Positions 1-30,324 are shown, numbered from the stretch's first letter. The stretch: DNA of 64,000 nucleotides from a virus (IMGVR_UViG_3300028886_000047), one strand, 5' to 3'. The notes: generated from the sequence alone by a model not told the origin. Numbers and translations are program-made.

Positions 1-1251
1 AGAATTTATGCTACATTACAATCTGCAGGTATCCTTATGAATGATGAAGTCCAATAGTCTTGGAAAAATCTTATTACAGGAAAACCAATCACTGCCAAAG
101 ATTTTGAAAACTTTAAATGGACATTACATGCTATTACAGGAGGAACCAATGCAGCAAGAGGACATTTTACAGAAAGAAATGTTGCTAGACAAGTTAAAAG
201 CAATAATAAACCTACTATTGAGACCAAATCTGGAAAGAAAGTTACTTTAACAGAGGATTAGGTAAAGAACATTAATAAAATTGGAGGAAGAAAGGGTCAA
301 AAAGCTGCAGAAGAGGCATTTAAAAAGGCTACAGGAGAAGAAGCAAAAGAAGGAACATTTAGTTTTTAGGAAAATTCAAGAGCTTGGTATAATCCAAATC
401 GTTATTCACAACGTCTTAGAAATTGGACAAGTGATAATGAAAGATTAGTACTTCCTAAAATAGCTCAATCTGTGAATACCCAAGCTATCAATAGATTATT
501 GGAAATTGACAGAGCTAAACCTATTATTGGAGTAGGAAATCCATTAAACAAACGTTTCTGGACAGAAGGAGGCCCAAATAGAGGAGGATTAACTTTTGCT
601 TTAGCTTCCTATCGAAATAATTCACTGTCTCCAATACAAAAGGAAGAAATTAAAAAAGAACTGAAAGCTCTTCCACTTCTTAGAAAACCATATAATAAAC
701 CATCTGTAACTAATTAGGAAGTTATTCCTGAGTCAAGAAGACTTCCACAGCCGGGAGGAGAACATAAGGGAACTAGAATAGACGTACAACGTACTGGAAC
801 TTCTTCAACTAAAAATATTTCTACAGGAGAAGCTGTAAAGGAATTTACTGATTTTGATAGAATGTATATAACATCTACTAGAAAAAACTCTAAAGTTCCT
901 TCTAGAGCATTTGGAAATGGATATGGAACCTCTAAAGAACCGGAAAGTGGTAGTTTAGGTTTTAATGGAATTACCGCTACTGTAACAAAACTTGATGGAG
1001 ATAAAGGATTTTCCATAAGTTTTGGAAAAACTGGCGATACAGTAATTGCCAAATAGTATAAAGATGTTCAACAATTACGAAGTGATTTAGCAAGATAGTT
1101 AAATAAAGTTATCAAAAAATAGCATAATGTTAAGGAAACAGCCGCTCTTTTAAGACAATTTAAAGCTAAAGGTTGGCTTAAACAAGGTGGACAAATTAAT
1201 AATTTTAACTTAGATAAAACAATATCAGAATTTTTAAATAAATAGAAATGA
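1..1251 (+). CDS. late-module protein, 5'-partial, TAG-recoded (frame 1; in-frame TAG at 55-57, 259-261, 367-369 and further downstream); ends TGA 1249-1251
   Basis: Frame 1 is open from position 1 to the TGA at 1249 except for TAG codons. The six-frame track fragments it at every TAG (track ORFs 472..717 and 862..1056 are pieces of it). The stop overlaps the next start (ATGA). Confidence 0.55.
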
Positions 1252-4200
1252 AAATAAGACCTAAAAATAGTGTATTATATGCTGCAACAGGTGTAAGATT
1301 TTCATCTGCAAATGCTGGCGGTGCAAATTGGAGACAATAGGTGTTTAATAATTACCGTCAGCATTTGCTTGATTAGCTTTCCAAATATGGTGAAGCTAAT
1401 GACTATGGTGATTGGTTAAATGAAATGCAGCATAGACATTCTCAATTATGGAACTCAGCAAACCAAAGTGGAAATTGGGAAGATATTGCATATGAAAATG
1501 AGGACGTTGGTAGATATCAACAAGACTATAGAGGAGGCTTAGGTAATGATAATAACTATCAAAGATTTGGAAAAGTTTAGTTAAATCCCGAAGATAAATA
1601 TGATTTTAACTAGACAGGTATTAAAACAAATCAAGCAACAAGATATAATATCCCAGACCCTCCAAGAAGAGTTTCTGGAGATTTCTCCAGAAAAGGATAT
1701 AACTATAAAGTAGATAACTATTATAGTGCTATCACTGACGATAGAAGATTACTTGGTCGTAAAGGAGACTGGGATGAAAATAGTCAAGAATACAAGGATT
1801 GGATTAAACAATTAAATGATAGAGGTTGGACAATGGAATTAGATAACTCTGACCAATATTATAAATTAAAAAGATTAGGAACACCTGACCCTAATAATCC
1901 ACAGCAAAATCCACAACAGAATCCATCTACTCCATATTCTATAACTGGACAACATAACGATAAATATGGATTTGATTGGAATAAAATAGGAGAAGGATTG
2001 AAAAAATTAGCTCCAGACATTCTTGCTGGAGGACGTCTTGCTTATACACTAGCTTCTAATGAACGTATTTTTAACGAACAAGTTGAAGGTATTAGGCCTG
2101 ATTTAAGACAAAGTTATGATACTTATCGTTAGGTAGTTGGTGATGAGGCTGGAAAACAATAGTATTATAGAAGAGCCGCAGAACTTCAAACAAAGGCAGG
2201 ATAGCCTATAGGTTCTGATTAGGATAGAAATCAAGCTTATATGATGGAAGCTAACCGTGTTGGAAATGAGTTAAAATCTCAAGGCGATATTGTTGATAAT
2301 ACTGAAATTAGAAGAACTTCTGATGAATCAAATCAACATCAATGGGCCAACACTTAGCGTCGTACTGAAGTTGCTAATGCAAATATAGCATCAATAAATA
2401 TGGCTAATAAATTACGTCATGATTTATTAGCTTTAAAACATTCAGCTAATGCAACATCTATACAGAATGAATTACTTGCTCGTGAAACAAGACTTAGACA
2501 GAGAGATGCTGAAAGAAGAGCTATTGAGGATTAGATATATGCTTTGGATGCTGAAAATAGATTATAGAATGATACTCAATACCAATCTCTGTATTAGAGA
2601 ATGTCTGATGCTTGGGATAAAGCTATTAAAAAGCATGGAGATAATGCAGCATTAGCTAAACTCGATCCAGATTTTATGGCAGCTCAAAGAGATTTCAAGA
2701 ATGCACAATATAGAATACAACGTATGCAATATTAGCATATGTTAGATAGAGCAAAGTCTGGAATGAAAATTACTTATAAAAAGAAAGATGATTTACTTTA
2801 TAAAACAGCTAGAGATGCAGTAGAACATTTTAGAAAAATGACTAAAATGACTTCTGATGCAAATAATAGACGTAGAATTAAAATAGAAAAATTAACTCCA
2901 CACCCGAAAGGAAATGCTAAAAAATATTAGCAGGGTGGTGTAGCCCCTTTTTTGGTATACACTCCAGCCGTTCTTGGTGGAGAAACCACAACAAGTACAC
3001 AAACTAGTTCTACGAATACAGGTTCCAGTAAATCATCAAAGAAAGAAGGAAGTGATACTCTTGATATGGTTAAAGAATTATTTAAAGCTGCATAGGGTAA
3101 AGGATTACCTTCTGATATGAATAGTGTTTATAAATCTTTAAGTAATTTTTTAGCAAGAGCAGAAGCCTTTGGAACTGAATTATCAACAGACGATATTGCT
3201 AGTATGTATTTACAGCAACTTCAATAGTTAAATACTGTTGAATATATGAAGAATGATTTTGATAAAGCTAAGGAACAAGCTACTAATAATGACGCTTTAG
3301 ATGAATTTGCTGTAGATAGAGCAGGAAATGTCATAATTCAAAATATGGATACTGGCGATATAACTCCTATGAGTTGGAATGATTTCAAGCAAAAGAATGA
3401 TAAAAACTTAAATCCTTTAACTAATAGACAACTTCTTAATATACGTGCAACAAGTCCAGAATATGCTTTTAGAAATGGATTACTTGATATTGTTGGAAAT
3501 GGAGTTGGAATTACCAAAATTTCAGAGTGGATTAAGAGTAATTTGCCGAAAATAGGAGCTACTGAAAATACTTTGGAAGGATATACTAAATAGGAGTCTA
3601 ATTAGATAATTCAAGGTATTGAAATTTTAAAAGACGCTCCGAGTGGGGATTATAAACTTTCTCAATATACTAAAGAACAACAGTAGCAAGCAAAAGCAGC
3701 TTTAAATTATATTATAGGAATGATGCCAAGAAATATGAAAGCTGTTCTTAATATACACGCTGATATGCAAGGTACTACTCCTGATAAATTATTAACATCT
3801 TTAGTTCAATCAGATATAAGTACTAATTATAAATTAGAATTAGACGCTGTTACTGGAAAAGCTGCTAAGGATAAAGATGGAAATAGTAAAGAAGGTTTAG
3901 AAATAAATTCAGCAGTACAATTATTACTAGGAATGTCTAGTCCCAGAGAATTTACATTTAGTATAGGAAATGGTAATAGTTTTACAGGACTTGCAAGAGT
4001 GTCTAGTATTAATGATACTAATGAAACTCCATTTGGAGCTGATTTTTCTTATTCTGAAATTTATAAATCTTCATTAAGAAAAAATTTGGATTTAGATAAT
4101 GCTAGTTTTGGAGATGTTCCAATTAATAAAGCATTAAAAGATCGAATAATTATTGATAATAGTACTATTGCAGGAGTAGATTTACCCTATACAACAGATA

Positions 4201-4730
4201 GTAATGGAAGAATAATTCCTAATTTTAAAATGCTGAATAAAATAGAAGAGGCTGATTAGGAAGTATTAAAGTAGGGAATAAATCCAGAATAGGAACCACA
4301 AAAAGTTAATGAAATTTATGCAAAACACGGACTTCCTATAAAGTATGGAACGGATAATAGATTAACTGGAAGTTATAAAAGATTTGCTGTAGTTCAGGCT
4401 ACTGCTATTGAAGATGTATTTTTAAATAAAAATGGTTTAGCCTCCAATGGAACCCTTACGTTAGTATCTGATGAAAATGAAATTGATAAATATTTAGAAT
4501 AGTTAAAAAATATTACTGGGAAAAAAGATATTGATATGGATAGACCTGGATTATTTACAGGTGATAAAGATATATATAAAGGTTCTATATTTATTCCTAT
4601 AATAGGAGATTTGACGGATGCTATATCTGGTAGTAAAACTGGAAAATTAACCGAAAATAATTATGATGATTATAGAAATAAATGGAGTACTAGAAATTAT
4701 ACAGAAGCTCCCAAATTTGTTAAACAATGA
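1248..4730 (+). CDS. large late/virion-module protein (~1160 codons), TAG-recoded, unknown function
   Basis: ATG 1248, frame 3, continuous to TGA 4728-4730 with many in-frame TAGs and no TAA/TGA. Track ORFs 1833, 2739, 3246, 3720 and 4536 are fragments of this frame. The translation reads as a normal globular protein with a low-complexity PQQNPQQNP stretch. Confidence 0.6.
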
Positions 4731-7700
4731 GTAAGCAAAATGATTATTTTTTAAATTAGTTATATAATCCTGAGTTTAGTCCTGGAGATTTTTAGACCAT
4801 TGGACTAAACTCAGAAAATACTTCAATTGAGAACAAAGATGAATATAAAAAGTTAGAATTAGTTCAAAATAATCCTTTATTATAGACTGATGGAAAATTC
4901 GATGAAAATAAATTTAATAAATTATATGAATAGGCGCTGCTTGGGTTTAATTTAATGTCGAATAGTGCAAGTAACGAAAGATTAGCTACTTCTTATTCTG
5001 CATTTAGAGATGATATTTTTGCTAAATCAGCCAAAAGAACTAATTAGTCAGAAACTTTTATTACTAAAATGCCTAATCCAAATAGATAGTAGATAGGATT
5101 CGTTAGTAATAATATAATGGAAAATCCCAAACAATCAGTTAGGGAAATAGCTCAAAATCAATTGGTTTGGGATGGAGAAACAAATTAGTGGATAAATGCT
5201 CCTAATGATGGATTATTAAATAGGTTAAGTAATTTTATCAATCCAAAAGTTTTAGCACAATATGATGAAGATGAAGATATAAATGGAAAAAAAGCTTCAG
5301 AAATTGGATTTGATAAAGAACATATAGCACATAAAAAAGGAGAAAAGAAAATAAATCCTTTAACTGGAACATATTATTATGAAACTCTTAATGGAAGAGA
5401 TATTTATGGAAGAGACGTTCTTTCTGGATGGGATACATTAACTAAAGATGGCTCATGGATAAATCAATACGATTTTTTTGATTCTGATGATTTAGAAAAA
5501 TCTCCTACAGGATCTTTAATGAAATCTGTAGTTAAAGTAGCTCCTGCTCTTATTCCTACTATAGCACCTTGGTATATAGGGGCTAGAGTTCTTTTGAGTA
5601 GCGCTGATTTATTTGCTAAAGTCGGCAAAATGATTCCAGGTATTGGAAGTGAAAGTCCAATGTTGTCTTATTTAGAAGGATTAAATGCTGCTGCTACTTA
5701 GTCCACATCCGATTAGTCTAGAGGTTCTCAAGAAATGGAAATGCAGGCACATGCCTGGTCTTTAGAAAATTTACTAAATCTTTCAGCTGATGTATTTACA
5801 CAATTAGCTGAACAAAGATGGATGTTTACGCATCTTCCATCTCTTTTAAAAGGAAATAAACTGGGATTTAGTAAAGAAGCTCAAGAAAAATTTAAAAAAG
5901 ATTATGCTGATAAATTAATATAGAAATATAAAGGATTAAATGAATCTGAAGTATTAAATCCATTTGAAAGAGCTATAGATTTAAAAACTGGATCTATGTT
6001 AGAAGCACAAATGGCACTTGAATCTAAATTAGATTCTGCTAATAAATTCGGAGAACATGTTTCTAAACTATATATGACTGGTATAACAGTAGCAGATTCT
6101 TATGAGGAAGCTAAAGATTCTGGATTATCTGACACAGAAGCTGCTATATTTACATTAGCTTATGCTGCTGGAGAATATGGAATTTTAAATACGAATCTCG
6201 GAGAACATATACTTCCAGAACTAAGGGCAGAAAAACATAAATATAGAAATATTGAAAGAGTTCTTAGAGAAGGACAAAAGAATACTTCTGAAGAAGTTAA
6301 AAAAGATCCAAGAAAATGGTATTAGAGACTAATGGGATTTGCTAAAGAAGCTGTAGTTGGTGATTATAATGATGCTAAAATAGCAAAGGCTTACGCTACT
6401 AATTCTACAGCGAAAGCCTTAGCTACAAGTGTTATGTCTAATGCGTTAGGAGAAGGTTTAGAAGAAGTTTCTGAAGAATTATGGTTTGATATAGCAAAAG
6501 GATTACAAAATGCAGCTGTTAATTTAGGTATAACTCAAACAGGAAATAAATTAGAAACCTTTGATGGATGGAATCTCGAACAAACATTAAATAGATACGC
6601 TCTTAATTTTGTGGGCGGTTTAGCAGGTGGTGCCATAGCAGTGGGACTTCCTGGATTTTAGGAAGGTATTAAAAATATGCTTGGAACTAATATGGATTAG
6701 AAACAAGCATATTAGGAATTAATTGCTTTAATTCGTAACGGCAAAAAAGATGATTTTTTAAGAACTATTGATAAATTGGAAACAGCTGATTCGAATTTGT
6801 CGGCTACTGGTTATGAAATTATAGATGGAGAAAAAGTACCAAAACAAGGCACTCCAAATGATAACTAGGACAAAGCTAATAAAACTGTTCTTAAAGGTAT
6901 GGTTAATCTTATTGATAATCTTCTTACTATAAATGGAGTTAAAATGGATGATAAATCTATTTTATCTAAATTAACGGATGCTCCAGCATTGGCAAGATTT
7001 CAAACATTAGTAGGAGGAGAAGAAGTTGGATCAGCTACATTAGCAAACTATCTTCAAAGATTTAATTCATTATCTACTAAAATTGCTGACATAGCTTTAA
7101 AAATAGATGCCATTAAACATCCTAAATATGATTAGAAAGGAAAGCAACAAGCTGAATTACAACAAAATGCTGGAAATTTATCTTCATTAGAAGCGGAAAT
7201 GAAATCTCTTATAGAAGAAAGAGATGCTTATCTTAATGGAGATATGGCTAAAATTGTTATTCCAAAAGTAATATTTGAAATGTCTCCTTTACTTTCAGCA
7301 CCTTTTATCCAAACTAATTTTAAGGATTATGCTGAAAAATTAGAAGGAAAGGTATTAGCTGATATACCAGAATCAAGGTTAAATGAATTAAAAACGTCTT
7401 GGGAAAATTATAAAAACAGCAATTTTAAAGATGATATAGAATTTGCTTTTTAGAATTTCATGTTAATAACAGAAAAATTTTCTGAAGGATTAAAAGCATT
7501 TAATTTATCATATTTAAAAAATCCTAGTGATTATCAATAGAATCTTGGTAATTTATTCAGTTAGACCCAAAATATTATAATGTCTCCAGATAATGAATCT
7601 GAAGATGTTCAAAAGAGTACTCAGAGTTTTGAATAGACTGAAGGAATAGCTAAAATGACTACATTATAGAAAAATATGTAGGCATTACATTCATTGATGG

Positions 7701-10700
7701 AAAATGCTGGACTAGATGTTTCGGATATGAGCATAATGATGAATGTTGGAGAGGCAGTATCTTTAGAAGAGTTACTTCCTGGAGACATAATGAATATAAA
7801 AAGAATAGCTGATTCAATTGGAGAAAGTTTTGATGAAAATTCTTTTACTGAAAAAGATGTTAAAAGAATTAAAGAAAAATTATTAAAAAAGAAAATATAT
7901 GAAACTTTAGTAGAAAATTCTGATAAAGTTAAAGAAGTATTAAATAAAATTAGATATTTTAATCAATCTACAAGACAATATTTAAAAGATTCATTTTTAA
8001 AACTTGTTTATGAGTATGATAAAGATGGAGATTATTTTAATGATCCAGATTTATATGATGAAACTGATCCTGATTATCAATAGGAATTAGCTAAAAGAAC
8101 AGAGCTTTATAAAGAATATACTGCAATAATTGATAGTAAACCAACTACTCCTATAGAACAATTAGCTGATTAGTTTCAGCTGGCTTTAGGAGATAATAAT
8201 CATATAAAAATATCTGATTTAATTACTACTCTACAAAATCAAATGTCTTTAAAAGCTAATCTTGGGGTAATTGAAGAATTTGGTTATGGAGTTGATATTT
8301 AGGAACAATTAAAAAATGCTTCATTAATTATAGATATTTTAGCTTCAAATATTTTAGGAGCTAGAAGTGATGGAGGAAAACTTGGAGCAATATTTGGATT
8401 TAATTCTACAGTAAATTAGCTAAATCCAAATATGAAATTAGCTGAAATAGAAAAGGATTCTGCAAATACCTTAATGTAGGATTTAGCTAAATTAAAAACT
8501 CAACTTGAATATTTTAAAACTATTTTTGATGTAAATAGTGGACAAAAATTGGAAGAATAGAAAAAAATACATAACAGAGTAAACTATTCTTTTATAAAAA
8601 AGATGAAAGCTATTGTTCAAGCTCTTCCTCCTGATGACTGGAACGAAAAAGATGAGTCTGGGATAGGAGTTCTTGATAAATTATTAGCAGCTTTAAACAA
8701 AGCAAGTACTTTTGAATCTATAGATTCTAGTACTGAAGATACTAGATTTAATTTAGATTCTGAAAAATCTAAAAAGTTAGAAAAGGAGAGCATAGAAATA
8801 TAGGATGCATTATATGATTTCTTTCAAACTAATTTATCTAAAATAGAAGATGGAAAGTTAGATTTATCTATGTTAAAGATTCTTCCTTCTACAGACGCTT
8901 TTTCAAATGATTATGAGGGAACGCTTATTGATTCAAATATAGAATAGTTTGATGATAGAAGTGCTGTTATGTTAATGGCTACAGCAGCAGCTGTAAAAGC
9001 TTCTGATTTTTATGCAGAATATAAGAATAGCCTTGTTGATGGAATCGCCCCTATTCCTGGACAAGAACTTGCTACAAGAATGGCTTATTCTTTTTTATTA
9101 AATAAACCAATATTTCAATTATTCGGTAAAGCATATAATGATAAATTATTAAAAGAACTTGAAGGAGTAAATAGTGGGAAACAATGGGCTATGTATGGAA
9201 AAAATGTTTCTCCTAATGGAAAACTTGATAATTCTTATGCTTTGCAATTTTTAAATACTTTTCTTGTAGAAGGTATTCCAGGAGCAGGTAAAACTCAAGG
9301 TTTCCAAAGAGTTCTTTATAATATGTTAAACCAATATCATCCAGAATTACTTGATGAAGTTTGGTTTATTCATACTGATGAAGATAAAGCTAAAGCTTGG
9401 GCAGAAAAACTTGGTGCTGATCCTAATAAATCAAAATTCTTTAGTAAAAAGACATATCTTGAAACAATTTATCCAGGATATACTCCAGCTAAAACTAATG
9501 AAAATGGAGTTATTATTACCAGTAAAGATGAATTATAGGAAGATGGAGAAACTGGAATTTGGCATTTTAAAAATGTTGAATTATCTAAATCAGTAAAAGC
9601 TCCATCATTAATATTAATGGACGAATCTACAAGATTCTCTCAATAGGAAATGCTAGTTTCAGAAGCATTTCAACAAGAACATGATATTAGTGCTATTGCT
9701 ACTGGTGATTACGATTAGATTGGAGCTGTAGGATAGTTTGAAATAAGTGAAAATGTTAAAAATTTCTTAAATACTAGTGCTGATAATTTCTTTCACAGTC
9801 CTAAATTAGGAAGTTCTATGAGAACCGAAAATACTATCAAGGATTAGAATATTGCAGTAGCTAGAAAAAATAAATTGCAGACTATTTAGAAATTAGCTTC
9901 AAATCAATTAACTGAACCCCTTATTAAATTGTCTTATTATCAAGATAATTCTGGATTATATGGTGAAAGAATTATTGGAAAAGATAGTGCTGACTTAGAT
10001 GAAGCTATTACTTTAATGTTTGCTACATTAAAGGGAGAAAAAGATTCTGATGGCAATTGGAAAGGAGAAAAAATAACTGTTATATATTAGGATAAAGACT
10101 CTGATATTTATAAAAAACTATAGAAAATTGCTACAGAAAATGAAAATTATAGAGGAAAAATAAACTTTGTAGAAAGTAGTGCTGCTCAAGGTGATGAGGG
10201 ATAGTATTATATTGTTGATTTAAAACCTGTTGATGTAGGATTAGAAACTACAGCTAACATGGGAAATCATGCTAATTTTGTTAATACTTTTTATACTGCA
10301 ATTTCTCGTTCTTCACAAGGTACTTTAATAATAGAAAATCCTAACATTAAACAAATAGCTGAAACTAATAGAGTAAGAGAACTTGTAAAGAGTCCATTAT
10401 CTGAAGAAGCTAAGGCGAAATTCTCTAAAAATAGAATTGATGTTTTATCTGAAATAATTACATCAGAACCTGGAAAAACCCCAAAAGCTAAACGAAGAGT
10501 TAGTACTAATCCAATAAGAACAACCGAAACAGAAGGAACTGGAGAAGAAGGAACATCAACTTCCGAGGAAGAAGCTACTGAATTAAATAAAAAAACAGTA
10601 ACTATTAAAAACGATAATCCTAAAGAGTATAATATGTTATTACATTCTATGCCTGTCAATGAAACAGGTTTTGTAGAGGATGAGGATGGAAATTTTATCC

Positions 10701-13447
10701 CCAGTGTTGGTTACGAAGACGAATATGATGGAGATAAAATTAAATCTAGAGGGAGAATCGATGGTTTAAACGGATTAACTAAATTAGTATCGATGACAAA
10801 TTCTAAAGGCGAACCTCTTTCTGATTTTGCTAAAAACTGGGCTATTAAAAATGGAAAAATAGTTAATCAACAGGATGCTTTAGAAACATTAAATGAACTC
10901 GCTTAGATAGGTTTATATACTAAATCTATGAGTGAAGTTAAAAGACAAGTTAAAGATACTTTAGGACTAAACTTGGACGATTCTGAATTTGGAGTTGATT
11001 TCTTATTTATGATAAGAGATAATAAGACTGATGAAACTCATGTTAATGCTAAAAAATCTAGAGGATTTTTAAGATTTCTTGTTTCTCCTATTGAAACTAT
11101 TATGGGAATATTTAGAGGAGAACATACTCCTGATAATGCCAATAAAGTAAATAATAATAATAAAGAATTTGCTTTAAATGTTTATAGAGTAGTTGACGGA
11201 AAGAGAGTAAATATATTAACTAAGCCTTTATGTATATTTACTAATCCGTTAACAATGCTAAATACAGAAGGGTTCGAGGATTTAAAGAAAGAGTATAATA
11301 AAATTAAAGATGACCCAAATGCTCCTGAGAAATTTTTAAATTTATTATTAACTAATTCAGAATTAAGAAAACTTCCAAATGCTGAAAAATTAATAAAACA
11401 TCTTTAGATTTATACTTATAAAAGTAAAAATGGAGATGTAGTAGTATATTTAGACAAGACTTTACAAGAATTAGCTGATTCTACAACTGGCCCAACTATT
11501 ACTGTTAATGATTAGAAAGGAGCTTAGTATTTTTATACTCCAGAATGGATTTACGGAGGAGAATATACTAATCTAGAAGATATAGATTAGACTGCACATC
11601 ATTTAACAAAAGATATATATTATTCTAAAAATGATGTAGTAGTTAATGGAAAAGTTATAGTAAAAAAAGGTCACGGTTTTGTTCTTTGTTCAGATTTTTA
11701 TAGAAATATGTCAGATTAGGATTTATTTTAGTTATTTGTAGATAATGAACTGAAAGATAATCCTGATGGGAAAATATCTGTAATATATGTAAGTTCTCCT
11801 AAAATAAGTATTCTTGATTATTTTAAGAATTTTGCTTTAAAATATAAAGGACATAATAAAAACGACGGAGATCCAGATATTGACTCTAATATTGGTAATT
11901 AGTTGTCTGAATTTAGAATTGCTGAATTTATAACTAAAAATAATTCTGTATATGACCAATATTTAAAAGGATTAATTAATTCTAATCCTACTAATAAAAC
12001 ATTAACATTAGTTAAATGGGATATATTTAAATCCGTAATCCAACAAATTTCTACTGATTTTGAATCTTTAAGTGGTGAAGAAAAAGTAAGGTTACTTGAA
12101 AAAGACATTAAAGATACTCCATATCTTAAATTAATTAAATATGATGGTACTGATACAGCTACTAAAAAAATCATTAATAATTTAAGAGATAATATTTATG
12201 GAGATGGAAAACATAATTTAAAGAGTTTTATTGCAAATACTCTATTGAATTTTGTTCTTAAACAAAAAAATGGATTTATTGATGCTAAACTACATTGGAA
12301 TTCTGACGGAACTCTCGAAATAACTGATGATATTAATAATAATATAAATAAAGTAATTGAGTCTTTAGATGATAAATTTAAAGAAGGTATTTTTACTCAA
12401 ATTAAAAAATCTGAAGGTTCCGAAGAAGCTCTTGAATTAGGAGACCATACCTTTATCAAAGCTGACGCAGATAATTATGAAAATTAGTATGGCAAATTTA
12501 GAATTAACGGAAAAATAGATTCTACAATGTTAGTTATGAATGTTTCTTCTGTGATGGATAACATTTTAGATACAATAAATAATTCTACTAAAAAAGCTAT
12601 GTAGCAAGATTGGTATCGACTCGATAATAGAAAGCATATAGATGATACAGAAGAACCTATTAAAGTTGAAGATATAGTTTCTAAGGAACTCTTAGACCAA
12701 TTTACAAATCGTTCTGAATTAGCTACTTTAATATTAAATAATATTAAAAAATTTGAGAATCTTAACGGAGGTGATATAATAAAAGAAGATACGGATATAG
12801 AAGAATTATTACCTGTAATTAATGATTTAGGCTATATGATACTTGGAGAATACAATTCTAAAATTGATAAACTACAATATACTTTAGTTAAAATTCCAGC
12901 AGGATACTCTACCAATCTTATTGAAGATAGTTATACTGTTGTACACGATTCTTCTGGAAAATATTACGAATTAGAAAGTGATGGAACCGTATCTGAGATA
13001 AATGATGAATCTTGGTTTAAAAGGGATTTATTTGATGAAGATGATATAAATGAAATTAAAGAAAATGCTTCGAAAGATTTATCTACTTTAACTGATCCAG
13101 AAGATGTACTTTTAGCTAAAATATGGCAATAGGTTCAATCTAAATCAGAGGGAGAAGGTTCTGCCCAAAGTATTGATGATATTTTAAATATGGTTGAAGA
13201 GGAATCTTTATAGGAAATATTTACAGACCCTGATTTACAAATGTTTGCTGAAATCGGAGGAGAAAATGTTCCTATTGATAAAGAAACCTTTAAAGCTGAT
13301 ATACAGGACTATATTCAGAATAAGAAAAAAGAAAAATTGGCAGATACATTCTTAGAAGAATTTAAATATCAAAATATAAATGAAGAATTATTAGATACTT
13401 TAATGACAGCAATAAATGAAGCTGCCGATAATTATACAGGATGTTAA
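4727..13447 (+). CDS. giant late-module protein (2906 codons), TAG-recoded; contains an internal SF1-helicase-like P-loop ATPase core (~9270-10330)
   Basis: ATG at 4727 overlaps the upstream TGA (caATGAgt). Frame 2 is open to the TAA at 13445-13447. Every one of the 14 frame-2 track ORFs between 5519 and 13447 ends in TAG except the last (TAA). Motifs GIPGAGKT (Walker A), LILMDEST (Walker B), ATGDYDQ and YTAISRSSQG are present. Confidence 0.6.
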
Positions 13448-13448
13448 T

Positions 13449-16400
13449 ATGAGTTTTACGTGTAGTATTGATATTATTAGTAAAAAATATAATGAATCTT
13501 TAAGTTCGGAAAGTAAGGTAAAAGAAACCTTACTTTCCTTACTAAAAGATGGAGCAAATATTGAAGATATTATTTAGGTAGTAACTGCTCCTAGAAGTAC
13601 GAGAGAATTAAGAAGTTTAGCTCCCTCTAAATTACAACTTATTAAAAAATTCTAGGATGAAAAATTTGTGAGAGACTTTTTAGGGTCAGATAAAAATATT
13701 AATTCTCCTGAAGCAGTTACTACTTAGACAAAAGAATTAGCAATAGATAATCCAGATGCTATAGTTTAGAATGGAAAACGTGCTAGAATATGGCTCAGTG
13801 AATCTTGGGGTGTAGCGTCTTTAGCTTAGAATAAATTTGTACAAGATACTAATAGAGAAATACAAAGTAGAATATTAGGAATGATTAAAACAGCTAATCC
13901 TAATGAGTCTGCTGAGATAGTATTGAATAGAACTATTCAAGAATATTTTAATTATAATTTAAACTAGTTAGCTGAATTTTTTGATAAACAAGGTAAAAAC
14001 GATTATGCCAAAATTATAAGAGATAATATGCCGTTTGATGGAACTAATCCTAATGAAAGAATAAATTATATAATTAAATCTATTTCAGATTATTTTTAGG
14101 ATTATTCTGATTCAGAGAAAATGGCTTATACAGATTCTAAAAATTCCTCTTATGATAAAGCTAGAGCATTTGCTAGATTTTTACTTATATAGCCACTAAA
14201 TTTTGATAACTTTTTAGCATCTAATGTAAATTCTATATAGATTAGAAATAAGGGAAAATTAATGTCTACCATTGATAAATATGGAATTTAGTTAGGTAAA
14301 GGAAGATAGAATATGACTTGGCAAGATGAGGATGCTGTATATTCTATAGCAAAAATGGTTGATGATTTTGTATAGCGAGAAATAGGTAATTGGCCGTTAT
14401 ATCGCAAACAAGGAGACGTGTGGACTAGACAATCTGATGAATATTGTGAAACTAATAAAGTAGTAAGTGTCCTAACAAAAGTAATGCGAATAGCTGACGT
14501 TAAAAATAAAGATTTTACTCCTATTATAAATAATAAATCAAATAAGCCTATAATTGATGATTTAAAAGATACTTTTAGAATTGCTTTTGGAGTAAACATA
14601 GAAACTGGAAAAGAAGTAATAGATGATATTTTTGAGAGATATATTGAAGGCAGAACTATTCCTTAGATAGTAAGAAATATTAATCAAGCTCCTTAGTATT
14701 TATTACCTATAGTGATGTATTTATTAACGGAACAACACAATAGAGCTAAGAAAAGTAAAGCCGAAACTTCTTTTAAAGATGGAATAGTTAGATTGAATGA
14801 TAATGAAGTAAATATATTACATTCAATTTGGAAAAATATGTTTGATCCTTTAAATAATAATTCTCTATATAATCAAGTTTCTCAAAATAGAGATTTCGAT
14901 TTATATTAGATGATTAGTCAAGTATTATTAACTCACGATAAAAAGGAATTATACGGAATAGTTAATGATATGGGAACTATAGAAAAGAAAAACTATTCTT
15001 TAGGAAGGGCTAATCAACGTTTAAATCAATTACAGTCTAAAATTAACGGAGCTTATTCTCCATTATTAAATAAAGGAATTTATAATGTTACTGTAGAAAA
15101 TGATTTTGAAGGCGAAGAACCTAGTACTACAATTACATATAAAGTTCCTATGAAAAAGGATAAATATGTAATTAAAATAATAAAAGGAAAGAAAGCTACT
15201 ATAACTAAAGACGGAATATAGGTATCTGGTAATTTAAGTCAAGTATTATAGGATTTAAAAGGATTTTTTACTGATGTTATTAAAATAAAATTTAATCAAG
15301 GTAATTTATTAGATATTTATCTTAATAAAATAGGAAATGGACAACAGAAAGCGTTAGAAAATTTAGTTGATATTTCAGCAAATTTAATTTATGCAAATGA
15401 AATATCTAAATACCTAAAAGGCGAATCTACAAGCGACTTTAAGAATAAGTTAAAAGAATTTTATGATGCTACTATTAAACGTCCAAATTTAGTAAAAGGC
15501 GTGACTTATAATCAAATCGATGCTTTTTCTGGAAGAATGTTTCCGTTAATTACACAGTTGTCATTAGCTAATGATATTAATGAAGGAATTATTGGAGATA
15601 TTGTAGTCAAAGGAGGAGCTGGAGAATAGATTAATTCAGTAATCTTAAGAACCTTAACCACTCAACTTTCTCAATTTATGGAAGAAAAATCACAAGATCC
15701 AGAAAGTGCTATAAAACATTTTTCTATAAAAGATGTTATTAAAAGAATGACATTTTTAAGAGATTATGTCGATAAAACTGGAGATGTGAAGTCTTCTACT
15801 TCTATGAATGTAGAGGAGTTTTTCTTGAATAATTTTATATATGATTTTTATGGAGACAGTCTTGCTGTACATTTAGGGGTATTATCTGATAAACCTAACA
15901 TTCCTAAGATGGAATTATATGTAGACACTCAAATATTAGTAGGAAATGATGAAGGTGGAAAACAAATAATTAAAAAATTAAAAGATTGTACCTCTGATGA
16001 TTTGAAAAAGATAGCTATTAGAGAACTCGGTTAGTATTATAGAATGATGAAATAGGAGATTGATAGAAATCTTCAAATTCTTAGTAATTATTCTCCTAAA
16101 GGAATTATTTATGATATAAATACTGACTACATTGAAACTAGAGAATATTCTAAAAAAGAATTAGAAAATGATATTCATGAAGCTATATATGCAGCACAGC
16201 AAGCTGGAGAGGATATAGAAATAAATGAATTACTTTATTTTTCTTGGGATAAAGACGGAAACCTTCACACTAAACCTTCTTTAATAGCAGAACTTGCTAA
16301 ACACGACGTTCCTGTAAATAAATTAGGATTAATTACTGAAAACTCTGAATAGTTTTTTACAAGAAAAGAACATGAATTAGTTACTAATTTATTGTAGGAT

Positions 16401-19400
16401 TTAAAACACGGAATTAGCTTTATTGATTCTCAAAGTTAGAAAATTATAGATTCTTCCGCTGTAAAAAGAATGAGGAAAGCTAATGAAAATGGGTGGTCTA
16501 CCAAAAGTAATATTATAATAGGAAAAATTGTTAACGGAAAAGAATCTAGAAATTTAATTACTAAAAAAAGTTTAACTGATTGGAAAGTTTATAAAGATTT
16601 CTTTAAATACGCTCAAGAGTTTGGAGGGTTTAATTTAGATAAACTCAATATTAATGGTAATTTTGATTTTGAGTATTTTTTATAGGCTTTAAATGAAAAT
16701 TATAGTGCTATACAAGAGTATTCTCATCTGCAATCTTTAAAAAGAAAGATTAAAGATGAAATTAAGAAAAAATTATTAAAAACTTCTGAAGGTCTAGATA
16801 AAAAAGCTCTCACTGAACAATATAGACAATGGAGAAAAGAAAATAGGCCTGAAGAAACAGAAATAGAATTAGAACAAGCAGTTTTAAATTACGAAACTGA
16901 ACCTGACGAAAGAATTTGGAGAAGTAGAAATGCTTCTTATAAAACTGAAGGGATAGACAATATAACTTCTATTGATGAAATAGAAAAATTAAAACAAGAA
17001 TATAACTTAACAGATTTTGATACTACTTTAGAAAAGAAAAGTGGTAATTTTTCATTACAAATAAATCCAGAAATATCTAGGTATAATACTTTACATTATT
17101 TATATTCTGAGGAAGGATTAAATAGTACAGTAGGTTCTCATATCAATCATAAAGTTCCTTATACTAAAGATCTAACTTTAATGGGAGCTTTAGAAACAGG
17201 ATAGCAAGCTAAACGTAATGTATCAGAATCGGGTGCTAAAAATCAATACACTAGAAGTGACATTAACGGAATGGACAAAAATATGACAATTGCTGTAATG
17301 CGTGATGTAAAGGCCGGAATTTCTACTATTAATGGTATTCAAAATCCAAAAGGAGCTACTGTAATGGATGGTTCTACTATAGGAAATTATGTAACTAGAA
17401 AAGAAGAATTGTATTCTCTTGGGTCACAAAAAGCTGGAATAGAAAATTCAAAACCTCTTGGAGATGATTTAAATCCTAAAACTGGGACCGGAACTATTAT
17501 CAAAACCGCTGTATTTGTACTTACGAATAGTCGTATAAGAACGTCAGAAGCTAACATCATTCTTCATAAACATATGAACAGTATTCCTTGGAGAAATTTT
17601 GACGGAAACTTTTTAAGAGATTATGATGGAAATAATATTAATTATCATCCAGTAATCGTATTTAAACCTTCTGAAGAAAAATATTATTTAAGAACTGACT
17701 TCTAGATTGAAGAAGATGGAGTAACTTCATTTAAAGAATTAGAATTAGGTAATTAGGAACAAGCAAATAATTTATTAAAAGTTGATGTCGGAGGAATAAC
17801 TATAGGAGCCTTAATTAAAGCAGGAAGAGATTTAACTCCTTATCTTAATACAATTGCTGCAATAACTAAGCCTAAGATTATTGGAAATGTTGATGAAGCA
17901 TTTGATACAATAAGAACTACCAGACCCATTTCTAATAATTATGAATTATGGGATTTATTTGGAGGAGCTTATTCTGCTTCTATAAATGAAATGAACGATA
18001 TATCTTATAAAGACGATAATACTTCTTTAGAGAATCTTACTATAGCAGCTCATTCTTGTGGAACTAGAATAAATAGAGATGTAACTAGGCCATCTAATGA
18101 AGATGTATATTTGCCATTAAAAGAAGCTAAAATTGATTGGGTTGTTACAGAAGGAGCTATTAAACAAGGAGCTTCTAATGTAAATTCTACAGATATGTTA
18201 AAAGATATTAATTATAGAGTGACAACTCAACGTATAGCTACAGCAGATATTGGAATGTAGTTAAATCCTGAACACTTAGCAGACAATTCTCATATTACTC
18301 TTATGACTCAGGTTGTTAATGCTTTAGGTTTAAGAGGATTTAGTTCTGACGCTGCTGATAAAGTTTACAAAGCACTTGCTACTTTAACAGATACTTCATT
18401 AGAAGAATTGTTTAAAGGAATTGAATTGAAAAGAACTACCGGGGACGATAGTTAGTTTAAAGAAGCAGTTTCATCTTTGTTATTGAAATCTATAATAGGA
18501 ACCTCTGAAACCGATGGGGATTTATTATCTTCTATTGTAGTCCAACTTAATAAGCAAGATAGAACTGGACATGATTATGATATAATTAGACATAGACTTC
18601 CTATAAGTGACCCCGCAATTCTTAACAAATTAATAAGTAATTTCTCTTCATTAATGACAAAAGCGGGAGTAAGAATTCAGTTCCCAGGAAGTATGAATGT
18701 ACTTGTGCCCTCTGATGGAATATATAAAATACATGGAGGAAAATTGAGAAGTATAGCTCATACTCAAAGATATGTAGAAAATGACCTTATTCCAAATAAT
18801 GAAGAAATTGCTGAATTACAAGAATTACAAGAACTACAAAGAGAACAAAAACCTCTTAAAGGACTTCATGAAATAACTATAGGAGCTTCTTATTTTGTAA
18901 GAATAACAAATAATCATTTTAATTCTGACAATCCTTTATTATCTACTGTACTTGCAGGAAAATCTATAAAGGTTGATGATTTATCAACATATTATCAATT
19001 AAGAGATTTGTTAAAAGGGACTACTTATACATTAGTTGAAGATGTTATAACTGGAAGAGATTTAGCACCATATAATTGTACATTTAATACTAATAAGGGA
19101 ATGTATATGTTATGGGATTTAGATTCAATTAAACATATACATATGTTAGAAAACAATCCAGAAGAAGTATTAAATATATATAGTACATATACAGATGAAG
19201 AAATAGTTAGAGAATTTCATATTAATCCAGAATACTTAGATAGAACTGATATTAAATCTTTTACAGAATCTTTTAAAAAATTAATTAATAGAAGAAAACA
19301 AATAGAATTAAATTCTATAGGTTCTGGAAATAATAATAGTGTATTTATAGATGGACAAAAAGTATTTATCGATAAATCTACTTTAAAAGTTTCCCCCTAT

Positions 19401-22400
19401 GAATTAATTGCTCCAAAAAATTATAAAACTACTTTTGGATTATAGACTGGAGACAATGTTTAGGAAATATCTTAGAATAAGTTATTCTTCTTAAAAAGAA
19501 TGATTGACAATCAATACAGATTAGAAAACGGGCATTGGGTAGATAGAAATCCAATTTCTTCTGATAAATATGACATTATTCTAAAAACAGTTTCAGGAAA
19601 GTCTTATCCAATATTATATAAGTCTGATACAACTAAAATTCCAGAAGGGTTAAGTGTAATCACAGAATAGGATTTTTATGCAAATCTTGATTGGGATGGC
19701 AGTAAAGTTTACAGATTAAATGGAGATGGTGATAGAATTTATGAATTACCTTATCATAAAGATTCTTCTGGAAAGATAGTTTATGATGCAGAAATACTTG
19801 TCGATGAAAATGGAAATGAAGTTATTTATACTGATAAATTAAATTTCTTTGTAAATAAATTACAATTTAATTATGTTGATTTTGGAAAAAATATATTAAA
19901 TCTACCATTTATTTATGATATATTTAAGCAATTAAGTACTTCTAAGAAAAATTCGGTTAAACAATTATCTTCTAATTATTTATCAGAAATTGAACAATTT
20001 AATCAAGTTTCACGTTTAGAAGATAGAATAAATAATGAAAAAGATGAATAGAAAAAATAGGATTTGAGTACTAGATTAGTATAGATTACTTCTGGTGAAG
20101 AATTTAACAAATAGTTAAAACAACAAATATCTGAAGGATTTAATTTAAGAGATTAGTATTTAACCCAATTAAATACTGAAATTTTAGCTGGAGAAATTAA
20201 AGGAAATTATACTGGAATGTTTGCTCAGATAATTAACTCTGCTATTGAAACACATACATCGTTTATTAAATCTTTAGATTATATTGTTTCTAGAACTCCT
20301 GCACAATCACATCAATCGTTCATGCCTATGAAATTGGTAGCATTTGATGAATCAGATGTTAATAGCGCTTATGTAAGTCGTTATCAATTATATTTGCAAG
20401 GTTCAGACTTTGATGTAGATAAAGCTAGTTTACTTGGAAGTATTATACGAAATGGAAGGTATGTTGTATGGAGTCCCTTTATGAGTTTATAGTCTATAGA
20501 ACATTTAAGAGCTTCTGAAACATTACCATTTCCAACTGGAAAACAATTAGAAATAAGAGAAAGTCTTAATAGTCGTGTATATGATAAAATGGATAAACCT
20601 GTTCATTTAGTTTGGCATGATGATACAAGGATAACTTTTACTTTGCCAAATTTTGAATAGGAAATATATTTAGCAAAGAATCAATCTGGTATATGGGTAT
20701 CTAATTTAACTCAAGATATTATGAGAAATTAGATGACTCCAATGGAGGTATATTTAATTGAAAGAGCTATTACAGATAAAATCTCAGAAGGAGAAATATT
20801 TGACGCTCAATTTAATATAAGTCATTTAGGATTTAATGAAAATCGAGTAAAGGATTCTTCTAAATATTTATATGAAAAGGATTTTGAATAGTTTATAAAT
20901 TGTTTTGCTCCTATATTTGATTATAACGAAAAAGGGCAATTAGAATTTAATAAACTTACTGGAAGAGTAAGGCATATAATTGACAATATTGGCAATGAAC
21001 CACTTCAATATGATACTATATCTTACGAAAATTTAACACAAGATTAGTTAAAATAGAAATAGATTAATAATATAAAACAATTATCTATTTTAATTAATGC
21101 TTTAAATTCCTTTGGATAGATTCCAAAAGTAATGTCTAATGATTTAATGACAGCAATTTATAAAACTGTTAATGAACATAATTTATATTTTGTTAATTCT
21201 TTTGATACTAAAGACGCTGTAGTTAATTACATTAGTAGTAACATGTTTTAGATTTCTAGTGATCCAGTAAATTTAGTACAAGCTATGACTTCTGTGGATT
21301 AGCAGACTGATTATGTGAAAGAAGAAATTGCAAATAAGTCTCCGTTAGCTGAACAATCTAAACATTTTGATAAAGGAAATATAATGTCAATATTTAGATT
21401 ATTAAGATTAACCTTATCTGGAAAACAAAATACAGGTATAGAAGCATCTTCATTGAAAGTTATGGAAGCTATCAATCAATATTAGGATGTTATTCTTAAT
21501 TATGGTTCAGACGAAGAACAAAAATCATTAATCAAACCTATAAATATAGGAGGCTATAATATAGGATTAATATGTAATGCTTATTGTAAAAATATAGCAA
21601 ATATTAAATCTAAAGAAGTATATGACGCATTACAAGAAATCGATAATGATAATGACCAAGCTATATGGTTATCAGCATTCTTAAGTCTTAGTACTGACAA
21701 CGCTAAGGATCCTACTCTTGCTAAAATAAATGCTAATCCAGAAATGATTGGACTTTATAATTCCGGATTTGTGTTAGGATTGCCTATAAGTTTTTTATCT
21801 AAAATAATAATGTCTCCTACAGGAATGGCTATTGCCGATGTTCAATAGGGGGATATATTTCTGGGTTATAATAGTTCCAGAGATATAGGAAGAGTTATAA
21901 ATTATATTAAAGAAGGTCCTAGACTCAGTCCTAATATGACTACATTAGAAATATTAGGAAAAGCTATTCAACTACATAATCCCGGAGAAGTTACTATTTT
22001 TAATCTAAATAAACAACTTATTAGAAATTACTGGGATTAGTCTTAGTTATTAACAGCAAGAAGAATTATTGCATTAGCCAAAAGTCTTGCTTATGGTAAA
22101 GAAGGAGAAAAAATAGAATATAATATCCCTACTATTGAATCTAGATTATCTAGAGATATCTAGGTAACAAGACGAAGAATTTCTGGAATTAGTAAAGCTT
22201 TAGAAGCTAAGAAATAGCAAATAATTGAAAAAGATACCTTAGGAAGAAAACATAAAAAACTTGATGAAGATGTTACTGCATTAACAGCGTCTTTAGAAGA
22301 ATTGAATACAAAACTTACTGAATTACAAGATATTAAAAATGAATATAAAATAACTCAAACTATTCCTCAAAGTAGAAATGAAGGAGATTAGTATGATTTA

Positions 22401-24323
22401 TATGAAAAATACCTTGAAAATTATAATTCTATTAAAGATGGAGAACAGTCTGATTCTTTGAAAAAATTATTTTAGGATAATAAAGAATATATACAGAATT
22501 CTTCTAACTTCAAAAAGACTATTTAGGATATTGAAAACTGGTTAGATACTATTGAATAGGTTCAAATGGATGAAGGATACACAGATGCTGAAGGAAATAA
22601 ATATAGCACTGTAAAAATATTAGAATAGTTAAATGAATTTGCTTCGGAAATGTCCTTAATACGTCCAAATCTCAGCCTCAATCAACAACTTCCTAATTCT
22701 AAAGAAAATCAACTTTCATTTATTAAAAAATTTGAAAATATGATAAATGATAGAATTACCTTAGGAAAAGTTGAGAATGCAAGTAAAATCAATGAAATAT
22801 AGGATTTCAAAGACTTTAACGAGCGTAAAGGGATTGAGGGATTAAATATTTCTATATCTGAATTTGTATGGGATGAAGAATATAGAAATGCTGCAATAAG
22901 AGCATACGATTCTATTAAATTTAAAGTGAATGCTTTAGATGTACTAGTCAAAGTGCCTCATTATTTTGGATATTTAAAAGCTTGTGATGCTTTATATCAG
23001 TCATTAGCTTATCAGTCAGTACAATATAGAGAACAAGACAGAATCTTAAGTAAAATAATCATAGGAGATTTAAAAATAAAAGCATCCAAAGATATTTAGT
23101 CAAGATTGAAAGTTGCTTCTAGGTATATTTCTAGACAAATGAATAATATGTTCTTATTAGAACAAAATATAGAATTAACTATTCCTAAAATAACTGATGG
23201 TAAAGTTGATACTTCTGTAAAAGTTCCAATTAAATTAGGTACAAAAGAAGGAAATGAAGCGTTCAAAGAATGGATGGATTTTGTAATTATTCCTCAGTAG
23301 AAATCTAAGTATAAATCTAATAGATTTTTAAATGAACTTTCAGAGGCGGCTTATCATAAATCTGATAATCATAATACAATTATAAATTATACTACTAACA
23401 TAGATAGTATGACAAATAACCCTACCGAAGTTACAAAATTTGCTGAAATAACTGAGGGATTTAATAATTTGCAATCTAAAACTATAGGAGATTTGCCGTT
23501 AGTAGAAGCTTTCTTTTATTATGATTTAATAGCTTATGATAGATAGCCAGGTCAGTTATCATTAACTCCGATTTTTAATAAATTAGTAGCATTAGGGAAA
23601 ACTAAAGTTATTTCCGATTATGTTCAATTTGTATCAGACTTGGATTAGGGAGGCAATATTATTTTAACTTTAGATGAAAGTTAGATAGATGAAATTAAGA
23701 GATTTATAGCTCCTGTTATTTCCATTTATGCTTTAGATGAATTTGATGAAGAATATGGGTGGGTAAAAGATCCAGAAGACTAGCAATTTTATCTTATAAA
23801 GAGAAATCCTAAGCCTAAAAATAATAAAAACGATGATTTTGGCGCAATGGACGATCCTAATATTGATAATCCAGAAATAGATATTGAAGGAATAGGTCCT
23901 GATGGTGATATTAATTAGGAAGAAAATCCTGAAAATCCTCAATATTAGCAAATTACCTTGAGTTCTAAATTAGCAGAACTTGAATGGGAGCCTGGAGTTC
24001 GTAAATTCGAAAGAATTACAGATTCTGGAAATTTAAATAGCCCTTATATTGAAAATTTTATAGTTCAAGAACAACAAACGTTATTAGAAGGACAGGGAAT
24101 AATTACACCTAAAGAAATAAGATTCGGAAATGATTCAATTACATTAGATGATGGAAAACCTAATATTCCAGATAATATCAGAAAGAGATTACAAGAAATT
24201 ACTGGACAAAATAACATAGATGATTTAATAGTAACTAAAGTTATAGTTGAAGGCTCTTCTAGAGAAACTGTAATTGATATAGATACTACGAAAGGAAATT
24301 TAGAAAACCCGTGTAAAGGATGA
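13449..24323 (+). CDS. giant late-module protein (3624 codons), TAG-recoded, unknown function
   Basis: ATG 13449 lies 1 nt after the previous TAA. Frame 3 is open to the TGA at 24321-24323. I checked codon by codon across 20460-22060 and 13446-14700 and every interruption is TAG. Track frame-3 ORFs 14418, 14712, 14910, 15678, 16470, 17271, 17991, 18477, 20217, 23106 and 23958 are fragments. Confidence 0.55.
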
Positions 24324-24373
24324 TAGCATGTGAAATAAATAAAAACTCGTTTGAATACCAGACATTGAAAAAT

Positions 24374-25375
24374 ATGTCTGGTATTTCCGAGTATTCTTTA
24401 GATAGTTATATATCTACATTCTAGACAAAATTTAATAGAATGCCTAAGTTAGATGAATTACCTAGAGTTAACTCGGAACCTTATTTAGAGAAAGTTTTAG
24501 GAATTAAGAAATTATCTAATATAAGGACTATTAATACTAATAGACTACTAGAATATACAGGAACAAATTCTGTAGAAGAAGCAAATATTAAGTTAAATTC
24601 TATATATAAAGATTTAGAAATTACTTTAACTCCATTTTAGAGTTTTACTTCTATTGAAGTAAGACATAGGCCATCTGTATATACATCAATTAAAGAGCCT
24701 TTAAATATAGAAGAATTCAAATAGGATGGAGCTACCATTTTATCTAAACAATTAGATAAAATGTAGAAACTGTATGGGATAAATATAATTCCTGTTTCTA
24801 GTGATGAAATATAGGAATTAGGAATTCCTAATGGGTCTTAGGTTAAGGGATTTGTGAAAAATGGAAATATTTATATAAATATTGAAAATTCTACAATGGA
24901 TACTAAAGTACACGAATTAATGCATATATTTCTAGGAGGAATAAGATATTCTAATCCAGAATTATATTTTTCATTAGTTAATCAAGTAGAATAGCTCCCT
25001 AGATATTAGGAATTTTCAGAAAGATTTCCTAATAGAACAAGAGGTGATATTAACGAAGAAATATTTGTTCAAGAGTTTGCTAATTATTTAACTAAATCTC
25101 CTAGTATATTTGATAATTTTGAAAATACGAGTGAATTAATGTATGAAATATACAGGAATATAGATACATTAATAGATGGAAATTATAGTGTTAAATCTTT
25201 ACAAACTTCAGCGTTTGGAGAAACTTTGGAAAATTTATATAAAAATTTACAATCAGAAAATATAATTAATAAACAAACAGGTTCCTTAGATGATTCAACT
25301 TTACATAGGACACTTGCTAATGTAAAAGAAAATTTAATGAAAAAGAATTTATTGGAGGAAAGATGTGATGGCTAA
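24374..25375 (+). CDS. late-module protein (333 aa), TAG-recoded, unknown function
   Basis: Frame 2; first ATG after the upstream stop. In-frame TAGs at 24422 and others. Ends TAA 25373-25375. Track ORFs 24440 and 25139 are fragments. Confidence 0.5.
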
Positions 25376-25442
25376 TTGTAAATATATATTAGGATAGAGA
25401 GTTTTTAATTCAGAAATATAGTTAGACGATTATCTTTCTGAA

Positions 25443-30282: not shown

Positions 30283-30324
30283 AAAAAAAAAATAAAGGAA
30301 GAATGATATTCATTCTTCCTTTTT
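30283..30324. terminator. bidirectional intrinsic terminator: A-run, perfect 10-bp inverted repeat ggaagaatga/tcattcttcc (30297-30319), T-run
   Basis: Seen directly. The hairpin is flanked by aaaaaaaaaataaa upstream and ttttt downstream. It sits between convergent genes ending at 30257 (+) and 30310 (-). Confidence 0.6.

Follow-up and report, generated by a model that had tools for sequence, protein, structure and literature searches.

Earlier structural work established that the crAss-like Cellulophaga phage phi14:2 carries a virion RNA polymerase (RNAP), gp66, of 2180 amino acids (aa), whose solved structure (PDB 6VR4, 10.1101/2020.03.07.982082) places the catalytic motif at 1361-DFDID-1365. 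A later survey (Yutin 2021, PMC7886860) described transcription blocks of giant proteins, one of them with DxDxD, in crAss-like phages and especially in their Zeta group; it also reported a PDDEXK domain in one transcription-associated giant protein, recoding confined to late genes, introns, Zeta RNAP genes disrupted within DxDxD, and few GenBank relatives. For the Zeta crAss-like phage Lera, the published annotation (PMC12386605 Table S1) lists a 'RecD-like protein' of 8346 nt, an RNAP split by a homing endonuclease, an open reading frame (ORF) of 2877 nt and an 'exonuclease V' of 4614 nt. Here we describe a comparable locus in a 64,000-nucleotide stretch of viral DNA, IMGVR_UViG_3300028886_000047 (the window). 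The six recoded genes of its plus strand are called gA to gF, gC and gD being the two giant genes. Positions 1248-30257 are very probably a Zeta-type crAss-like transcription gene block in which TAG is read as glutamine, gD is a gp66-type RNAP, and gC is a giant partner, co-expressed and particular to this lineage, with a superfamily 1 (SF1) ATPase domain. The system itself is already known, and the window holds a well-preserved, uninterrupted member of it.

A first reading of the window, made without database searches (the sequence-only reading), had proposed two adjacent giant ORFs, each open in a single frame but for TAG codons, and its account of them proved exact. The gC frame (4727-13447) runs through 2906 sense codons from an ATG start to a TAA stop and has 52 in-frame TAGs; the gD frame (13449-24323) runs through 3624 sense codons from ATG to TGA and has 68. 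The two are separated by 1 nt, and gC overlaps the upstream gB (1248-4730, 1160 codons) at an ATGA. Internal TAA or TGA codons, which that reading had named as grounds for abandoning the proposal, were looked for, and there were none in either frame. Given the base composition, TAA and TGA are expected at 7.2% of codons, and the probability of frames this long staying open is therefore ~1e-94 for gC and ~1e-117 for gD, which excludes chance. Many TAGs occur in all six plus-strand genes (1-30257), and the minus-strand genes from 30.3 kb onward mostly have 0-2 each.

To compare TAG usage, the same block was taken from two relatives, L084 and L085, whose gC and gD proteins are 62-73% identical to those of the window. 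In both, the gC, gD, gE and gF frames likewise lack TAA and TGA, and the frames are open at full length rather than split into smaller genes, the other outcome that the sequence-only reading had considered damaging. Each giant gene of these relatives has 45-88 TAGs, at positions largely different from the window's. Among the 962 alignment partners of TAG codons, 321 were CAA or CAG and 244 were TAG, with the remainder mainly codons for Lys, Glu, Ser and Asn; glutamine thus made up 45% of the non-TAG, non-gap codons opposite TAG, against a background of 4.8%. Because TAG aligns to glutamine and the relatives' frames are open, TAG encodes glutamine in the recoded block and the giant genes are single units. 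In public gene calls, too, the proteins of many relatives are full-length, at 3559-3784 aa for gD and 2843-2935 aa for gC. An alternative gD start at 13416, 33 nt upstream, used in the database gene call P0001, was rejected; the relatives' N-terminus, MSFTCS or MAYTCS, supports 13449.

Were TAG a true stop in this region, the giant ORFs would be an artefact of reading through it, and the DNA would hold dozens of small genes or be non-coding. A standard-code reading does break gC and gD about every 55 codons, and counting against recoding is the finding that the 64-kb window has no tRNA gene, suppressor or other; any suppressor would therefore have to sit elsewhere in the phage genome or come from the host. 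An artefact of this kind does not, however, account for 6530 codons free of TAA and TGA, for TAGs that change position between relatives and stand mainly opposite CAA or CAG, or for gp66 and gp65 homology and motifs that extend across many TAGs. In crAss-like phages, moreover, recoding of TAG to glutamine in late genes has been reported and is backed by proteomics. We consider the probability of the read-through explanation negligible.

The sequence-only reading had found no convincing DxDGD polymerase motif by eye. A catalytic motif is nevertheless present in gD, in the form DFDVD (aa 2320-2324, 20406-20420), within GSDFDVDK (aa 2318-2325). It lies in a predicted beta-prime-like barrel segment, 'SRTPAQSHQSF...YLQGSDFDVDKASL' (aa 2274-2335, 20268-20453). 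Database searches yielded 24 close and distant gD homologs, 23 of which have LQGSD[FYL]D[IV]D, the remaining one ending within the motif. The GSDFDVDK string is identical in crAss001 Gp50 (SGSDFDVDK), and phi14:2 gp66 has TGSDFDIDK. The motif is of the crAss-type DFDxD form, not the cellular DFDGD, and DFDxD with R-x-P-x-Q ahead of it, as here, is the two-barrel signature. A profile of the gD core matched 1583 cluster representatives at E<=1e-3, each 2000-5000 aa long. Conservation in gD covers aa ~1170-2830 and 3050-3410, and the ~1170 aa ahead of this core are specific to the lineage.

Family profiles were compared with hhalign, the gp66 profile being built from 80 IMG/VR loci. The strongest block shared with gp66 is gD aa 2584-2801 (21198-21851; 'GK..GI.A', 'LSAFLSLSTDNAKDP'), which aligned to gp66 aa 1469-1663 (98.4%, E 6.5e-15). 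A second block, gD aa 1550-1760 (18096-18728), aligned to gp66 aa 1043-1248 (94.7%, E 6.2e-8), a segment that spans the Connector between the two barrels (1095-1238) and the stretch just upstream of it. The motif-bearing blocks, gD 2274-2335 and gp66 1314-1377, are collinear and fall between these two. Against single sequences, the gD profile reached 95% with gp66 and 95.2% with crAss001 Gp50; no control comparison, of gD with the gp65 or gp67 family, exceeded 0.2%. The modelled fold of gD is similar to the solved gp66-type enzyme, and its best structural matches are two-barrel enzymes. The profile matches and the motif together indicate that gD is a gp66-type polymerase, and on this sequence evidence we assign it as a crAss-like single-chain, two-barrel DNA-dependent RNAP of the virion type.

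Several results weigh against this assignment. The only block bearing on the second barrel is the 94.7% match to the Connector and the stretch before it; no confident model resolves the beta-like barrel, and the Connector-like block does contain the invariant K and N of 'GAIKQGASNVN'. The motif block scored poorly as a separate hhalign match. Neither Pfam nor PHROGs gave anything useful for gD, nor did PHROGs for four distant gD relatives. Searches of the PDB with the gD sequence and with a 14-sequence profile (HMMER) found no match, and a direct one-to-one HMMER comparison of gD with gp66 gave only 12 bits. BLAST of gD against established RNAPs was likewise negative, pairwise BLAST of the window's proteins with those of phi14:2 was uninformative, and tblastn against 50,697 phage records returned only two matches, the unannotated human faecal phages MT835470 and MT835492.

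The sequence-only reading had likened the giant ORFs to the virion polymerases of either crAss-like or N4-like phages. The first resemblance was borne out by the gD motif and the gp66 profile; the second was not, as neither Pfam nor the PDB offered a match. An N4-type virion polymerase, a T7-like single-subunit enzyme within a giant protein, would share with gD a comparable size (~3500 aa), cysteine depletion and the logic of virion cargo, and the N4-like (Schitoviridae) ejection operon does resemble the block in its giant virion-delivered polymerase, its ejection proteins and its strong cysteine suppression. The two enzymes nonetheless differ in fold, T7-like in N4 and two-barrel in gD, and have no sequence relation. 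Pfam detected no T7-type RNAP in gD, no PDB sequence or profile match appeared although the PDB holds N4 virion RNAP structures, the best structural and profile matches were two-barrel enzymes, and DFDxD follows R-x-P-x-Q. We regard an N4-type gD as extremely unlikely.

As a gp66-type polymerase, gD shares with phi14:2 gp66 and crAss001 Gp50 its form as a giant single chain, GSDFD[IV]DK after R-x-P-x-Q, and collinear blocks. Like gp66, gD stands at the end of the late or virion block, adjoining a divergent early module and followed by a gp65-like protein, and is cysteine-poor, with Cys only near its termini. It exceeds gp66 by 1400 aa, its N-terminal ~1170 aa are unrelated to gp66, and only gD has a ~510-aa insertion and TAG as Gln. 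The insertion (aa 1761-2273, window ~18729-20267) separates the Connector-like block from the catalytic barrel; aa ~2008-2268 within it were modelled with a predicted local distance difference test (pLDDT) score of 80-88, the rest of the model being weak.

Interruptions of the polymerase gene were seen in relatives. The gD representatives P0024 (which ends ..LQGSDY), P0156 and ~40 others of the family stop inside the catalytic motif, in agreement with the published disruption of Zeta RNAP genes within DxDxD; the window's gD is intact. In L001, a distant relative, an ORF of the LAGLIDADG type (L001 17686-18768) splits the gD gene.

The neighbouring giant gene, gC, belongs to a family of 1120 proteins of 2600-3300 aa, always encoded just upstream of the RNAP gene, and many of these have precomputed matches to AAA_30 or AAA_19 (PF13604/PF13245). 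The predicted SF1 (RecD/Upf1-like) ATPase domain of gC (9260-10330) has Walker A GIPGAGKT (9272-9295), Walker B LILMDEST, motif III GDYDQIG and, for motifs V/VI, YTAISRSSQG (10292-10321), a complete set in canonical order. Invariant columns of the family are G1516, G1519, G1521, K1522, D1632, E1633, G1660, D1661, Q1664, R1699, T1857 and R1861. SF1 RecD/Upf1 helicases (Pfam AAA_30, AAA_19) thus share with gC the Walker A, DE, GDxxQ, arginine and [ST]R..QG elements in the same order; unlike them, gC scores below the Pfam cut-off, and the ATPase makes up only ~12% of its 2906 aa. A gC profile searched against the PDB matched Upf1/NAM7 weakly (E 0.02-0.08) but collinearly. Conservation peaks in the N-terminal ~700-900 aa, and the domain at aa 1-700 (4727-6826), the family's most conserved part, was modelled by AlphaFold mainly as long helices (pLDDT 72). 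Foldseek comparison of that model with the PDB gave only noise (membrane transporters at E of at least 0.1 and a template modelling score of ~0.1), and no sequence or fold relative of the domain was detected. Pfam and PHROGs gave nothing useful for gC, and a protein-database search with the core alignment returned two proteins only. Weighing against an SF1 assignment, the AAA_30 score of gC was 16.3 bits, below the cut-off of 27. Judged from the motifs, gC carries an SF1 (RecD/Upf1-like) helicase-type ATPase domain and is not a polymerase, and it appears to correspond to the large protein with a RecD-like helicase domain found ahead of RNAP in the Zeta branch.

The possibility was considered that gC is a beta-like RNAP subunit and that gC and gD form a split polymerase. 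The genes are adjacent, co-oriented and conserved together, and the annotation of crAss001 names three giant genes as putative RNAP subunits. In gp66, however, both barrels are in one chain, and gD aligns with it on either side of the Connector. Further, the gC family compared by hhalign with gp65, gp66 and gp67 of phi14:2 (as single sequences and as families) and with crAss001 Gp44-50 gave at most 1.4%, and the sole recognisable enzyme domain of gC is the SF1 ATPase. A split polymerase therefore seems very unlikely to us. The missing counterpart in phi14:2 and crAss001 is also a point against gC as a member of the virion cargo, whose membership is for that reason argued from position and cysteine depletion only.

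Downstream of gD lie two genes that together correspond to phi14:2 gp65. The first, gE (24320-25375, 351 aa), has an HExxH motif (HELMH, 24911-24925) and a downstream D..EE, both conserved in at least 80% of 93 relatives. Its HExxH aligns to HEIMH of gp65, with the match to the zincin region that the phi14:2 study assigns to gp65 reaching only 55%, and Pfam gave no match; gE is a candidate zincin-like metalloprotease and a candidate counterpart of the N-terminal part of gp65. The second, gF (25368-30257, 1629 aa), has a PD-(D/E)XK nuclease domain at aa 177-435 (25896-26672; Pfam PDDEXK_1, 39.4 bits against a cut-off of 22, E 8.8e-10), whose catalytic core, 'G.IDL.V...G..H...K.S' and 'YQL..Y', is conserved in 86 relatives; crAss001 Gp47 matches this region at 87.1%. 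Further along, gF aa 832-1525 (27861-29942) are homologous to gp65 aa 609-1318 (97.4%, E 1.4e-11, 592 columns), and a hydrophobic helix lies at aa 1492-1519. By these matches the C-terminal part of gF is a homolog of gp65, the 'RNAP-associated protein', and gE and gF together are the gp65 counterpart, likewise downstream of RNAP and apparently split in two genes with a nuclease added. In phi14:2 one protein stands in place of the two, and PD-(D/E)XK was not detected in gp65 in our comparison. Upstream of the giant genes, gB encodes 1160 aa with 23 TAGs, no cysteine and no family match, and its position is kept in close relatives.

The order of these genes is conserved. Close relatives keep gB-gC-gD-gE-gF followed by a divergent module, and in a distant relative an AAA_30 giant gene is followed in turn by a split gD, a gene the size of gE and one with PDDEXK_1. 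The phi14:2 layout g067-g066-g065 is mirrored here, in that giant genes close the late block and face a divergent replication module. Lera has the same order as the window, namely RecD-like protein (2781 aa), RNAP and exonuclease V (1537 aa). With the Zeta block the window shares several giant multidomain proteins, one with DxDxD, a PDDEXK protein and recoding (TAG/TGA) in late genes only; introns or homing endonucleases are common to both as well, and so, in relatives, is the interruption of RNAP genes at DxDxD. Other Zeta-group features seen here are a giant-protein transcription block beside a divergent replication block and a rich nucleotide-metabolism set. The window differs from Lera and the Zeta phages in that its RNAP is one uninterrupted frame of 3624 codons, and its contig is ~118 kb compared with the 145-192 kb reported for Zeta. 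At 39-44% identity, the PolA proteins of Crassvirales are the nearest to that of the window. The hallmark genes (TerL, portal, major capsid protein, IHF and genes 74/75/77) lie outside the 64-kb window, which tells against a firm placement; for this reason we infer, rather than assert, that the phage belongs to Crassvirales and is Zeta-type. The Zeta assignment draws on gene order and the features above, with Lera compared by its published annotation.

Cysteine content sets the recoded block apart. Cysteine makes up 0.23% of residues in gA-gF (37-30257), compared with 1.99% in the minus-strand proteins (30310-64000), a ~9-fold depletion (Fisher p 3e-35); gA and gB have none and gC has three. 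Cysteine suppression has been described for the ejection-operon proteins of N4-like phages, and the depletion seen here supports ejection independently of homology. The few cysteines that remain are placed in a particular way: at the gC-gD, gD-gE and gE-gF junctions, proteins nearly free of cysteine have a Cys within 1-5 residues of their termini. These are the last codon of gC (13442-13444), gD Cys5 (13461-13463) and Cys3622 (24312-24314), gE Cys4 (24329-24331) and Cys349 (25364-25366), and gF Cys4 (25377-25379). Wherever termini could be aligned, these residues were conserved without exception (100%), in 14 of 14 at the gD N-end, 33 of 33 at the gC C-end, 78 of 78 at the gE C-end and 79 of 79 at the gF N-end. 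The same is found in phi14:2, in which gp67 ends ..TIC, gp66 has the form MAC...ECK, these being its only two Cys, and gp65 starts MSC; in crAss001, Gp49 begins MAKKC and Gp50 begins MSKRC. We found no literature report of this terminal-cysteine pattern.

Counterparts of the block's proteins have been detected in phi14:2 virions. Synteny with phi14:2 and the strong cysteine depletion suggest that the block is a virion module of injected cargo. By analogy with phi14:2 and crAss001, its proteins would be made late, packed into the capsid, and ejected with the DNA through the tail, largely unfolded. Once inside, gD would transcribe the early and middle genes, that is, the standard-code module on the opposite strand from ~30.3 kb, and the gC ATPase might unwind the incoming genome or translocate it for the polymerase. 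Packaging, ejection and the enzymatic activities are all proposals, as is the part played by gC, which too would probably be packaged and ejected, its ATPase acting on incoming nucleic acid.

It could be argued instead that gC is an intracellular RecD-like helicase of replication or recombination whose gene happens to lie in the final part of the late operon. Its SF1/RecD-like motifs, the 'RecD-like protein' annotation of its Lera counterpart and the lack of a homolog among the phi14:2 and crAss001 proteins compared would fit such a role. That role does not, however, fit a gene inside the TAG-recoded late block and translationally coupled to gB, through the ATGA, and to gD, across the 1-nt gap. 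Nor does it explain 3 Cys in 2906 aa where the replication module has 2%, a conserved terminal Cys in the pattern of the flanking cargo proteins, or ~2000 of 2906 residues outside the ATPase, the highly conserved helical N-terminal domain among them. We consider an intracellular gC unlikely. A further proposal, which takes gC as cargo, joins two ideas: that gC is an ejected SF1 motor, delivered with the injected polymerase and pulling in or unwinding the genome, and that the cargo proteins are linked head-to-tail through their terminal cysteines. In the window the linked pairs could be the gC C-end with gD Cys5, the gD C-end with gE Cys4, and the gE C-end with gF Cys4; in phi14:2 they could be the gp67 C-end with gp66 Cys3 and the gp66 C-end with gp65 Cys3. 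Either disulfides or a shared metal site could provide the links, and the proteins would then thread the tail as one string. Taken jointly, the two ideas are speculative, and we judge the combination rather unlikely.

With these assignments, functions are proposed for ~25 kb of recoded sequence, whose two giant genes had no significant Pfam or PHROGs match, and this lineage is shown to have a large RNAP family. Because the window's RNAP is uninterrupted and those of relatives are often broken at the catalytic motif, Zeta-type crAss-like phages can be annotated against it as a clean reference. Further, gC and the conserved terminal cysteines raise testable questions about the delivery of the crAss-like transcription machinery and the start of its action.

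Other features of the window lie on the minus strand. The standard-code module contains a sigma-70-family factor gene (45999-46838; PHROG 351, E 1e-61), and the presence of both a phage-encoded sigma factor and a virion RNAP points to a redirection of the host polymerase in later transcription. The gene for a family A DNA polymerase seems to be split in two ORFs (43034-44782 and 41264-41872). Between the halves, an ORF at 41956-42939 has an N-terminus that by eye is GIY-YIG-like, and it looks like an intron or homing-endonuclease insertion. Three ORFs, at 30310-31020, 40518-41240 and 56031-57140, have 6, 9 and 10 in-frame TAGs and by eye are endonuclease- or mobile-element-like; because these TAG-rich ORFs are in the early module, some early genes may need the late-stage code. 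Directly past the block, an ORF at 31274-32716 has the look of a Band_7/flotillin-type protein, and the next, at 32706-33290, that of a nucleotidyltransferase of the NMN-adenylyltransferase type. The same flank in relatives (L084 26976-27575; L085 27125-30698) has Band_7 and CTP_transf_like genes, and in L085 also NAD synthase and NAPRTase. The Band_7 and nucleotidyltransferase flank could be a phage NAD+ salvage set.

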